Virus record (IMG/VR): IMGVR_UViG_3300027977_001066
Strand: one strand, 5' to 3'
Length of the DNA stretch: 20,000 nt
Source: an uncultured virus (IMG/VR IMGVR_UViG_3300027977_001066)
Lineage: Duplodnaviria > Heunggongvirae > Uroviricota > Caudoviricetes
The notes beneath the pieces were generated by a model, which saw only the letters and a program-made list of their open reading frames with translations, was not told the DNA's origin and ran no database searches. Positions 2,615 to 4,954 of the stretch are shown piece after piece (within the stretch, counting starts at the first letter, position 1; each line of letters begins with the position of its first letter). Both the position numbers and the translations under genes were made by a program.

Positions 2615-3292
2615 TTATGCTAAGTGTGTCATTAGCGTATTCATTTGTTTAACTCCACCTTTTGACAACTGAAATCCTTTTTGACCTGCACGATTGATTC
2701 GTTGGTCATAACTAGGATGACTGCTATTAGGCAGTTTAGTTATACTATTGTAAAAGTCGTAATCAGATTGTTTTTGATGCAAGAACTTAAACATCTCAAC
2801 TTTGTTGTAGCCCAAAGCCCTACATAACCTAATAGCAAAGTCGTCAGCATCCATTTCTTCCCGACGTGCTTGCCCGAGATCAGGCTGAAAACCGTGTCCT
2901 AGGGCAATGTGTCCCAGTTCATGTGCTATAGCAAATGCCAGTGTAGCATCAGGAGCATCCCAAAACACAGTTAGGTCAAGACTGACAGTGCGATTGTCAG
3001 CATTTCCTTGAACCCATTGGTCATTCGACATAACACGAACCTTTGTCCCTGTCAGTCTTTGTGCCCATTCTGGACCGGCGGCTCGCATTAATTTACCTAA
3101 CATACCATTACTACGTTGTTGCAGTTGTTCGAATCTAGGCATCCAAACGTCAGGTTGTTTTTTTATAGTTTCTAAATCTTGATATTCACCTGCTTTAGCT
3201 AAACCAGTAGCGCCCAATGCGGCGGCACCCGCTACACCTTTAAGTAAGTCTCTACGGCTAATAGCTTCGCTGATGAATTCGTTTGCTCTCAC
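2615..3292 (-). CDS. M48-family zinc metallopeptidase with twin-arginine signal peptide
   Basis: AHELGH (HExxH), EMDADDFA third-ligand motif, SSHPSYDQRI C-terminal M48 motif. N-terminal SRRDLLK plus hydrophobic stretch plus AKA. Start reassigned to GTG at 3292, just after the stop of the upstream gene; the ORF track gives 3328. Confidence 0.8.
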   Translation of the reverse strand: MRANEFISEAISRRDLLKGVAGAAALGATGLAKAGEYQDLETIKKQPDVWMPRFEQLQQRSNGMLGKLMRAAGPEWAQRLTGTKVRVMSNDQWVQGNADNRTVSLDLTVFWDAPDATLAFAIAHELGHIALGHGFQPDLGQARREEMDADDFAIRLCRALGYNKVEMFKFLHQKQSDYDFYNSITKLPNSSHPSYDQRINRAGQKGFQLSKGGVKQMNTLMTHLA

Positions 3293-3293
3293 G

Positions 3294-3848
3294 TTATTTC
3301 TTAAGGTTTCTAATTTTCTGTTCAGCAATCATTACCAATTTTTCCATCTGTTGTACACTTTCACAGTTCCATCTGCGTAGTGCTTTGTTGATTGGGCTAT
3401 CCGGATCTCGTTTAGTCTTAGCACTTGCGTGAGCCTTCTTCATTCCACTCATTCTAGCACAGAATGATTTACGGCGTTTAGCGGCTTTACTACCCTTCTT
3501 TAGTTTTGAAGGCTTAGTAGTAACAGCAGTCTTTAGTTTAGATCCTGGATTCTCTCTGCGATATGCTTTGACAGCCTTACTGCTCATGCCATCAGTTTTG
3601 TCTTTTTTGTTGACCTTTTGCCAATCCTCATCTAAATCTTCTTCTTGTATATCTTTTGGCTTCTTACCAGCCTTTTTCATACTAATAGCAATAGCGGCTT
3701 GTTGTGCTGGATTAGCGGCTTCATCAATGTTCTTTGGATAGCCGGGCTTTGGTTTGCATTTGCAAGTTCCGGGTTTGCAAGTGCAACCTCTCATTCCACA
3801 TTGTGGACAAATCTTGCTTGATTCTGTTAGTACTTCAGTAATTTTCAT
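3294..3848 (-). CDS. Basic phage protein, DUF6321-like C-terminal domain, probable virion-internal protein
   Basis: RRKSFCARMSGMKK...DPDSPINKALRRWNC resembles DUF6321 from memory. Very Lys-rich, Cys-rich N-terminal segment, N-terminus MKITEVLTE. Confidence 0.6.
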   Translation of the reverse strand: MKITEVLTESSKICPQCGMRGCTCKPGTCKCKPKPGYPKNIDEAANPAQQAAIAISMKKAGKKPKDIQEEDLDEDWQKVNKKDKTDGMSSKAVKAYRRENPGSKLKTAVTTKPSKLKKGSKAAKRRKSFCARMSGMKKAHASAKTKRDPDSPINKALRRWNCESVQQMEKLVMIAEQKIRNLKK

Positions 3849-3895: not shown

Positions 3896-3925
3896 ACATC
3901 TATTATTTATCATTTTGGTCTATCT

Positions 3926-4954
3926 ATGCACACAAATCAGTCAATCAAACGTATCGGTTTCGCTTGTAAATGGGCAGAAATCAATCACAAAGATGAGATT
4001 GTTTCAGTCGAAGGTTTTAACACAGGAGGTACAACTCAAGCTTGGGCAAAGCGTAATAATCGAAGTGTAGTAGAAGAAAAGATTATGGATGTTGCTAAAC
4101 GCAATATTATGAATACTCACGCACTTGTTAAACGTGTTGCTACACTAGAACCAGAATTGCGTATGTTGCGTTTGACTAGCGACATGCTTAGTTTCTATAC
4201 TATGGATGAATACAAAGACTTTTGGCATAGTACAGATGTACAGAATAGCTTGGCTCGATGGTTTGCCCCTATAGGTGAAACAGCACGTGCTAATGATGTG
4301 CGTCTTAGCTTTCACCCCGATCAGTTTGTTGTTTTAGCAAGCGACCGTGATGAGGTAGTAAATAAGAGTATTGAAGAATTTGAATATCATTGTGACATGG
4401 TTCGTTTTATGGGCTATGGCAAATCATTTCAAGACTTCAAAGTAAACGTACACATTTCAGGACGTAGAGGCCCACAAGGCATTAGGGATGTGTACAACAG
4501 ATTGTCGCCAGAAGCGAGAAACACACTAACACTAGAGAATGAGGAATACACACATGGACTTACAGACTGCTTATCATTATCTGACCTCGTACCTACGGTC
4601 ATGGACATACATCATCACTGGATACGTGAAGGGGAATACATTGAACCTACTGATGACCGTGTTAAAAGGGTTATTGACAGTTGGCGTGGCGTTCGCCCTA
4701 CTTTACACTATTCTGTCAGTAGGGAAGATTGTCTTGTTGAACACTCCCGCAATGAACGTCCCGCCCATGATGCGTTGATTGAGGCAGGATACAGTAAGCA
4801 AAAACTTCGGGCACATAGTGATTACTATTGGAACGAAGCTGTTAACGATTGGGCATTGACATTCATTGATAATTTTGATATGATGTGTGAATCAAAGGCA
4901 AAGAATCTTGCCAGCTTTAAATTACTAGAGAGATATAAATGTTTGAAAAATTAA
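3926..4954 (+). CDS. uvsE: UV damage endonuclease UvsE/UVDE
   Basis: RIGFAC, LRLTSD, RLSFHPDQFVVLAS, VNVHISG, LTLENEE, MDIHHHW, HYS, RAHSDY, MCESKAKN: the full UvsE motif set. Confidence 0.93.
   Translation: MHTNQSIKRIGFACKWAEINHKDEIVSVEGFNTGGTTQAWAKRNNRSVVEEKIMDVAKRNIMNTHALVKRVATLEPELRMLRLTSDMLSFYTMDEYKDFWHSTDVQNSLARWFAPIGETARANDVRLSFHPDQFVVLASDRDEVVNKSIEEFEYHCDMVRFMGYGKSFQDFKVNVHISGRRGPQGIRDVYNRLSPEARNTLTLENEEYTHGLTDCLSLSDLVPTVMDIHHHWIREGEYIEPTDDRVKRVIDSWRGVRPTLHYSVSREDCLVEHSRNERPAHDALIEAGYSKQKLRAHSDYYWNEAVNDWALTFIDNFDMMCESKAKNLASFKLLERYKCLKN

Follow-up and report, generated by a model that had tools for sequence, protein, structure and literature searches.

A jumbo-phage M48 metallopeptidase with a predicted Tat signal behind a leader of head-targeting type

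The Locus and Its Source

Why a phage gene for a small metallopeptidase should open with two address-like sequences, one resembling the tags of head-packaged proteins and the other a twin-arginine (Tat) export signal, is the question raised by this locus. The window, the whole 20,000-nucleotide stretch of DNA that was analysed, is the end of a 74-kb viral contig. The DNA polymerase is nearest those of Sinorhizobium phage Phosso and Agrobacterium phage Atu_ph07 (47-49%), followed by those of Rak2-like phages. By this measure the source belongs with the T4-related jumbo phages, in the neighbourhood of Atu_ph07. The near-complete relatives measure 335-352 kb.

The gene lies on the minus strand and codes for 225 amino acids, in a frame running from a GTG at 3292 to a TAA at 2617-2615. 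Translation of this frame (3292-2615) gives the N-terminus (M)RANEFISE-AISRRDLLK-GVAGAAALGATGL-AKA. The start at GTG 3292, as proposed in the earlier note, is well supported: the codon lies one base past the TAA of the upstream gene, and the homologues share a start at M-R-A, in the same position as in the GTG 3292 product. A start at TTG 3328 was ruled out. The 12-residue extension that it would add is not conserved among the homologues, because an in-frame stop stands one codon ahead of the homologous ATG in three loci (L061, L062 and L069). The following features were assigned:

3266..3292, minus strand: nine-residue leader (1-9) with I-S-E at its end; likely a propeptide that targets the head and is cut after E9 by the prohead protease (from the homologue pattern and the Atu_ph07 virion proteins)
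3191..3265, minus strand: predicted Tat signal peptide, residues 10-34 (S-R-R-D-L-L-K, Gly/Ala-rich h-region, A-K-A signal-peptidase site; TIGR01409)
3256-3251, minus strand: RR codons of the Tat signal
2615..3190, minus strand: mature M48-type zinc metallopeptidase, residues 35-225, plus stop (Pfam M48, invariant residues, fold match)
2909..2923, minus strand: HELGH zinc-binding motif (sequence and alignment)
3294..3848, minus strand: upstream co-oriented gene of 184 amino acids, with the leader M-K-I-T-E-V-L-T-E and a DUF6321 domain
3904..3910, minus strand: ATAAATA word, 62 nt before the upstream gene, a weak resemblance to a T4 late promoter

The three-part layout of leader, Tat signal and M48 domain was upheld by the reading frame, TIGR01409 and Pfam M48. 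The upstream 184-aa gene is likely co-transcribed head cargo. ATAAATA resembles the T4 late promoter consensus, and 17 of its 25 sites on the contig have an ORF start no more than 90 nt away, but the window contains 8 copies against an expected 13, so the word is not enriched there. On either side of the two cargo genes of the minus strand lie a UvdE UV-endonuclease gene (3926-4954) and a run of glycosyltransferase-like, GIY-YIG-like and epimerase genes (118-2614).

The M48 Protease Domain

The mature part matches Pfam M48 with an E-value of 1.8e-8. Its motifs, HELGH at residues 124-128, E146 in EMDAD and H192-P193, were already pointed out in the earlier note, and alignment confirmed them: H124, E125, H128, E146, H192 and P193 are invariant in 61 sequences, namely the query and 60 sequences chosen from 107 homologues. 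The HExxH motif, the third-ligand E, the late H-P motif and the gluzincin fold place the protein in peptidase family M48.

In the structure model, residues 1-30 have low confidence and residues from about 35 to 210 are confidently modelled. With a structural aligner, the fold closest to this predicted model is that of E. coli BepA (Z 11.2, rmsd 3.7, 140 aligned residues), tied with Q74D82 of Geobacter (Z 10.4). A Foldseek search of the PDB gave no match at an E-value of 0.001 or better, and in the ESM Atlas only generic M48 clusters were matched. The protein does not qualify as an orthologue of BepA or LoiP: its scores lie far under the NCBIfam cut-offs (15.8 against 570 bits for BepA and 14.3 against 365 bits for LoiP), and it has neither a TPR domain nor a lipobox. 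A full-length match to the exclusion protease Lit (U49) was not obtained either; the score is 17.6 of 274 bits and the weak similarity, with an E-value of 0.0017, is confined to the motif region at residues 117-156.

A Leader Shared with Virion Proteins

The T4 internal proteins IPII and IPIII carry the capsid-targeting sequence MKTYQEFIAE. The leader of the M48 protein resembles it in being short, N-terminal and terminated by (I/L/V)-x-E, here I-S-E at residues 7-9. In T4, according to the accessible part of PMC9026906, a 10-residue tag suffices for packaging and processing depends on tag residues 8 and 10; fusions to the tag are packaged and delivered, and packaged GFP refolds after ejection.

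A leader pattern was drawn from the M48 family, 87 of whose 107 homologues it matches, and was then applied to the ORFs of Atu_ph07. The virion proteome of this phage is counted at 131 proteins in the accessible part of PMC6102473. The virion list used here, Table S5 of PMC6102473, has 140 rows, including single-peptide rows, each row being assigned by its mass and place in the order to one of 816 ORFs (714 are annotated). Leader ORFs are found in this list in 20 of 22 cases, compared with 120 of 794 other ORFs (odds ratio 56, p 2.5e-14), about 10 of the 20 sitting in one gene cluster and looking paralogous. This shows that the leader type marks virion proteins in a relative, virion association being distinct from internal location or injection. 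The leader proteins gp53, gp482 and gp483 of Atu_ph07 run far below their mass, as scaffold-like proteins do.

A gp21-type prohead protease (PF03420) is encoded by all four near-complete relatives, one of which bears an M48 polyprotein; PF03420 gave no match in four fragmentary relatives. The N-termini of capsid and scaffold proteins in the near-complete relatives contain L-L-E, L-A-E and I-N-E sites.

A leader pattern is also matched by six other ORFs of the contig of the window, one of which begins M-R-A-N-E-F-L-N-E. On the same contig (L014:728-18168), leader-bearing and modular genes surround a ferritin/Dps gene and an SNase gene, and the domains of this cluster include nucleotidyltransferase-like, amidoligase and cytidylyltransferase-like ones. 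Elsewhere, an ORF at L129:12275-13411 (plus strand) joins the leader to a domain of sigma-70 region 4 and possibly encodes an injected transcription modulator.

The Tat Signal and Its Conservation

The predicted signal scores 20 bits with TIGR01409, over the cut-off of 16.7, and 20.5 bits with Pfam TAT_signal (PF10518), under the cut-off of 22.7. The motif in the window has Leu two residues after RR, where the Tat consensus has Phe. Leu at this position is a common natural variant, and many of the near homologues do have Phe. In 15 chosen signals, M1, E9, R13, R14, L17 and A34 are invariant. Phage TatA and TatC were each found in none of five related records, with controls matched in 11 of 14.

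Among 107 near homologues, 51 have the RR cassette, and in 50 of these 51 a glutamate stands 3-6 residues before RR. A chance motif was ruled out by this spacing together with the 15 of 15 contexts of a scan that was blind to the glutamate (described below). The Tat cassette is absent from the other 56 near homologues, 47 of which keep the leader. RR is retained across synonymous codons where the cassette occurs, and more than half of the near homologues do without it. This Tat-less half shows that the M48 protease does not always need a periplasmic address.

An unrooted tree of 98 rows, from which 14 fragments or divergent rows were excluded, contains four changes of the Tat label. Two of them are scoring errors (P0030, in which RRSVLK was missed, and P0017, a chimera). 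After correction, the Tat-less rows fall into two groups, one of 41 and one of 7, for which the direction of gain or loss needs a root. Signal and mature parts recombine separately, since P0006 is 58% identical in the signal and 91% in the mature part, and P0018 96% and 62%, respectively; the swapped signals compared still keep RR, the h-region and A-x-A.

In GTDB genomes no close cellular homologue was found, and the 79 loci kept are motif-level matches only, by which a recently captured bacterial Tat protein was ruled out. No match to the gene or the cassette was found among 50,697 phage records, a blank that is weak for the cassette because its 34-residue query is short and low in complexity. 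The cultured phages searched gave no match, Atu_ph07 and RsoM2USA included.

The Tat cassette might be a vestige or a hitch-hiker, the enzyme then being an injected cytoplasmic protease, perhaps Lit-like, that acts on proteins of the host or of rival phages. The many near homologues without Tat and the short, weak match to Lit fit this explanation. It is nevertheless very improbable in our estimation, as RR is retained across synonymous codons and cassette swaps, GTDB genomes hold no close cellular signal-bearing donor beyond the motif-level matches, the best fold match is the periplasmic BepA, and unrelated envelope passengers carry the same cassette. Comparison of the sequences indicates that the predicted design, a leader followed by a Tat signal, is real, conserved and widespread.

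Modules Buried in Polyproteins

Longer homologues provide comparative support for a Tat signal that would be exposed by cleavage. All 29 of them bury the Tat cassette at residue 128-620, with a glutamate just ahead. In each of the 20 that have sequence beyond the protease, the module closes with H-L-A-E, where the free form ends H-L-A-stop. The polyprotein module is bounded by h-x-E sites at both ends. With a glutamate before the signal and H-L-A-E at the end, cleavage after E would release the Tat signal together with the protease. In relatives that are 90-91% identical, the Tat and M48 module forms the end of a protein of about 505 residues that starts with the leader and has RR near residue 292-296, behind L-A-E or V-S-E. 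The three polyproteins compared also hold an amidoligase domain homologous to the Atu_ph07 virion protein gp196.

The glutamate-blind scan covered the best 80 of 414 loci, which were picked for having a Dps gene nearby. It yielded 15 distinct Tat contexts, 12 of them internal, and in all 15 a glutamate lies 3-6 residues before RR (background 26%). The polyprotein and scan cases are related by descent, so these counts are not independent trials. Six chains (P0113, P0157, P0168, P0176, P0184 and P0245) contain at least two Tat-like cassettes each, most of them behind a glutamate site.

The position of the signal bears on when export would take place. In the window's own form RR is at residues 13-14, which fits the normal length of an n-region, so that the Tat system of the producing cell could accept the protein even without cleavage. 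The protein might then be exported late in that cell, with the leader in the role of a normal n-region or in competition with head loading, for late exclusion or lysis timing. The late-promoter-like word upstream agrees with such timing, and GH19 passengers of the cassette could serve lysis. We consider this explanation unlikely: in 29 of 29 long forms the signal is buried hundreds of residues deep between h-x-E sites, the Tat-less forms retain the leader, and T4 gp21 is active only once the prohead is complete, as stated in the accessible part of PMC9958956. Exposure of the signal by the prohead protease is the reading preferred here.

Other Passengers of the Cassette

The earlier note proposed a search of related phages for varied enzyme domains behind leader and RR N-termini, and such passengers were found. 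A profile of leader plus Tat signal gathered 352 clusters at 50% identity. Among the 149 clusters scanned (of the best 150), the passengers are TonB C-terminal domains (8), GH19 (6, one with LysM), M48 (4), a phage tail lysozyme with LysM (1) and other or sub-threshold families (8). The remaining 122 of the 149, presumably of phage origin, have the Tat signal only or no family. A lipobox is present in three leader and Tat clusters.

A control scan dealt with ORFs that carry the leader in related loci, grouped in 64 clusters. GH19 lies behind the signal in four of the six Tat carriers. The other 58 clusters contain amidoligase, NUDIX, GNAT, sigma region 4, GGACT and DUF domains, one Tat-less M48 and one GH19, the last with an RR-less signal-like cassette after I-E-E. 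Given the absence of a close cellular homologue, the passenger families and the separate recombination of signal and mature parts, the cassette looks phage-made and preferentially placed on envelope-acting passengers.

Several of these proteins are of interest in their own right. The TonB C-terminal proteins (P0112, P0117, P0119, P0135, P0198, P0209, P0211 and P0257) are possible decoys of TonB-dependent receptors. In P0118, P0140 and P0166, the leader and Tat signal end in a lipobox cysteine, which makes them possible virion-delivered Tat lipoproteins. A second class of cassette, observed in polyproteins, lacks RR; in it, h-x-E precedes W-K, a hydrophobic stretch and A-x-A. It is seen in the C-terminal part of L014:9257-12148 (plus strand; own contig, outside the window), in L148 and in L177, and once directly before a GH19 domain. 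This class may follow the same logic of cleavage and then export, with a signal of Sec type.

Not all cassettes are canonical. None of the 29 buried forms has the consensus Phe, whose place is taken by Val (17), Met (6), Leu (4) or Ala (2). The three deeply buried forms examined (P0267, P0269 and P0284) have no TIGR01409 match at an E-value of 0.05, P0030 and P0271 fall just short of the cut-off, and some cassettes, such as P0132 and P0143, are without a clear A-x-A. The non-consensus residues, the unclear A-x-A and the RR-less hydrophobic cassette in the same slot would suit a module that is packaged, cut and injected, but whose RR peptide is a membrane tether or a decoy that takes up the host TatBC receptor, or whose passenger is dropped directly into the periplasm at ejection. 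This is quite unlikely in view of the A-x-A followed by a mature G in 41 of the 48 scored members of the M48 family; the lipobox variants and the periplasm-specific passengers also fit real export.

A Proposed Route from Virion to Periplasm

It is probable, on the comparative evidence, that the M48 protein is packaged in the head, cut after E, injected and exported by the Tat system of the host. We infer the following course for packaging, cleavage, injection and export. The protein with leader, Tat signal and M48 domain would be synthesized late and loaded into the phage head by its leader. Cleavage after E9 by the prohead protease would free the Tat signal. Upon infection the protein would be injected, refold and bind zinc in the cytoplasm of the new host, whose Tat system would export the refolded enzyme to the periplasm, where the signal would be removed after A-K-A. 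Tat is an export route for folded proteins and would suit this task, because the injected protein would refold and bind zinc before export.

The same delivery route was put forward in the earlier note. It gains comparative support from the leader in Atu_ph07 virions, PF03420, the h-x-E sites and the passengers; its periplasmic end point is qualified by the 56 of 107 near homologues without Tat, in which the protease does without that address.

What the exported protease would do is the most speculative part. It might clip envelope proteins, either outer-membrane receptors or assembly factors, early in infection, and so exclude later phages or remodel the envelope. Early action on the envelope is favoured, with low confidence, on account of the similarity in fold to BepA and of the TonB and lysozyme passengers of the cassette, and we offer this function tentatively, as something short of probable. 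The chances appear evenly balanced that delivery in two steps is general in a large group of jumbo phages. Head-loaded polyproteins would be cut into modules by the prohead protease, which alone would expose a swappable Tat cassette, and the host would export a toolkit of M48 proteases, TonB C-terminal decoys, lysozymes, LysM proteins and lipoproteins before phage gene expression, for immediate exclusion or remodelling.

If the route is correct, injected virion proteins are not confined to the cytoplasm, and periplasmic effectors can be pre-loaded and exported by the host at infection. It would add a new way of targeting proteins and offer a candidate mechanism of superinfection exclusion that is independent of expression. 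Hundreds of unannotated jumbo-phage proteins (the 352 clusters at 50% identity) would then parse into modules with a predicted destination.

No description of a Tat route from virion to periplasm was found in the literature on phage Tat signals, prohead proteases, capsid targeting, ejection proteins, superinfection exclusion, huge phages and the export of T4 internal proteins, a coverage that mostly excludes subscription papers. Tat or twin-arginine is not mentioned in the main text of PMC9503650, nor in the accessible part of the preprint 10.64898/2026.10.24.761521, and the sole Tat word match in 10.64898/2026.09.13.751334 concerns host genes.

Comparison with Known Systems

Compared with BepA/YfgC, LoiP and Q74D82, which are periplasmic, the enzyme has the same HExxH, downstream E, late H-P motif and fold. 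It differs in being a minimal domain of 190 residues with about 20% identity, from a phage-only family. With bacterial Tat signals (TIGR01409, PF10518) the cassette shares S-R-R-x-h-L-K, the h-region and a basic residue before A-x-A, but here the signal is hidden behind a leader or lies as much as about 900 residues into the chain, a viral protease-type site stands ahead of it, and Leu or Val occupies the Phe position.

Phage polyvalent proteins (Iyer et al., PMC5512222) and the effectors of group 2 jumbo phages (PMC7824862) are likewise multi-domain, shuffled and probably head-delivered conflict enzymes that include metallopeptidases. The words "TAT", "twin", "periplasm" and "signal peptide" do not occur in the main texts of these two papers.

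The T4 proteins IPI-IPIII and Alt have in common with the present system a short leader ending (I/L)-x-E, variable cargo behind a shared tag and a gp21-type protease, encoded here by relatives. Alt is cleaved near either terminus, at the sites ITE and LTE (accessible part of PMC5694885), and the module described here is likewise flanked by sites at both ends. In contrast, the described cargo of IPI and Alt acts in the cytoplasm (accessible part of PMC9958956), and the partial T4 descriptions consulted for comparison mention no export signal behind the tag. Here the leader has nine residues and the cargo also occurs as polyproteins.

A parallel in logic is offered by the bipartite presequences of thylakoid-lumen proteins, in which removal of a first address exposes a Tat signal for a second crossing. 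Their sequence and setting are unrelated, and in the phage the first compartment would be the virion, and the second crossing would take place in a new host. Relative to the injected head proteins of T4 type, the M48 protein is best described as adding a second address, one probably exposed by cleavage.
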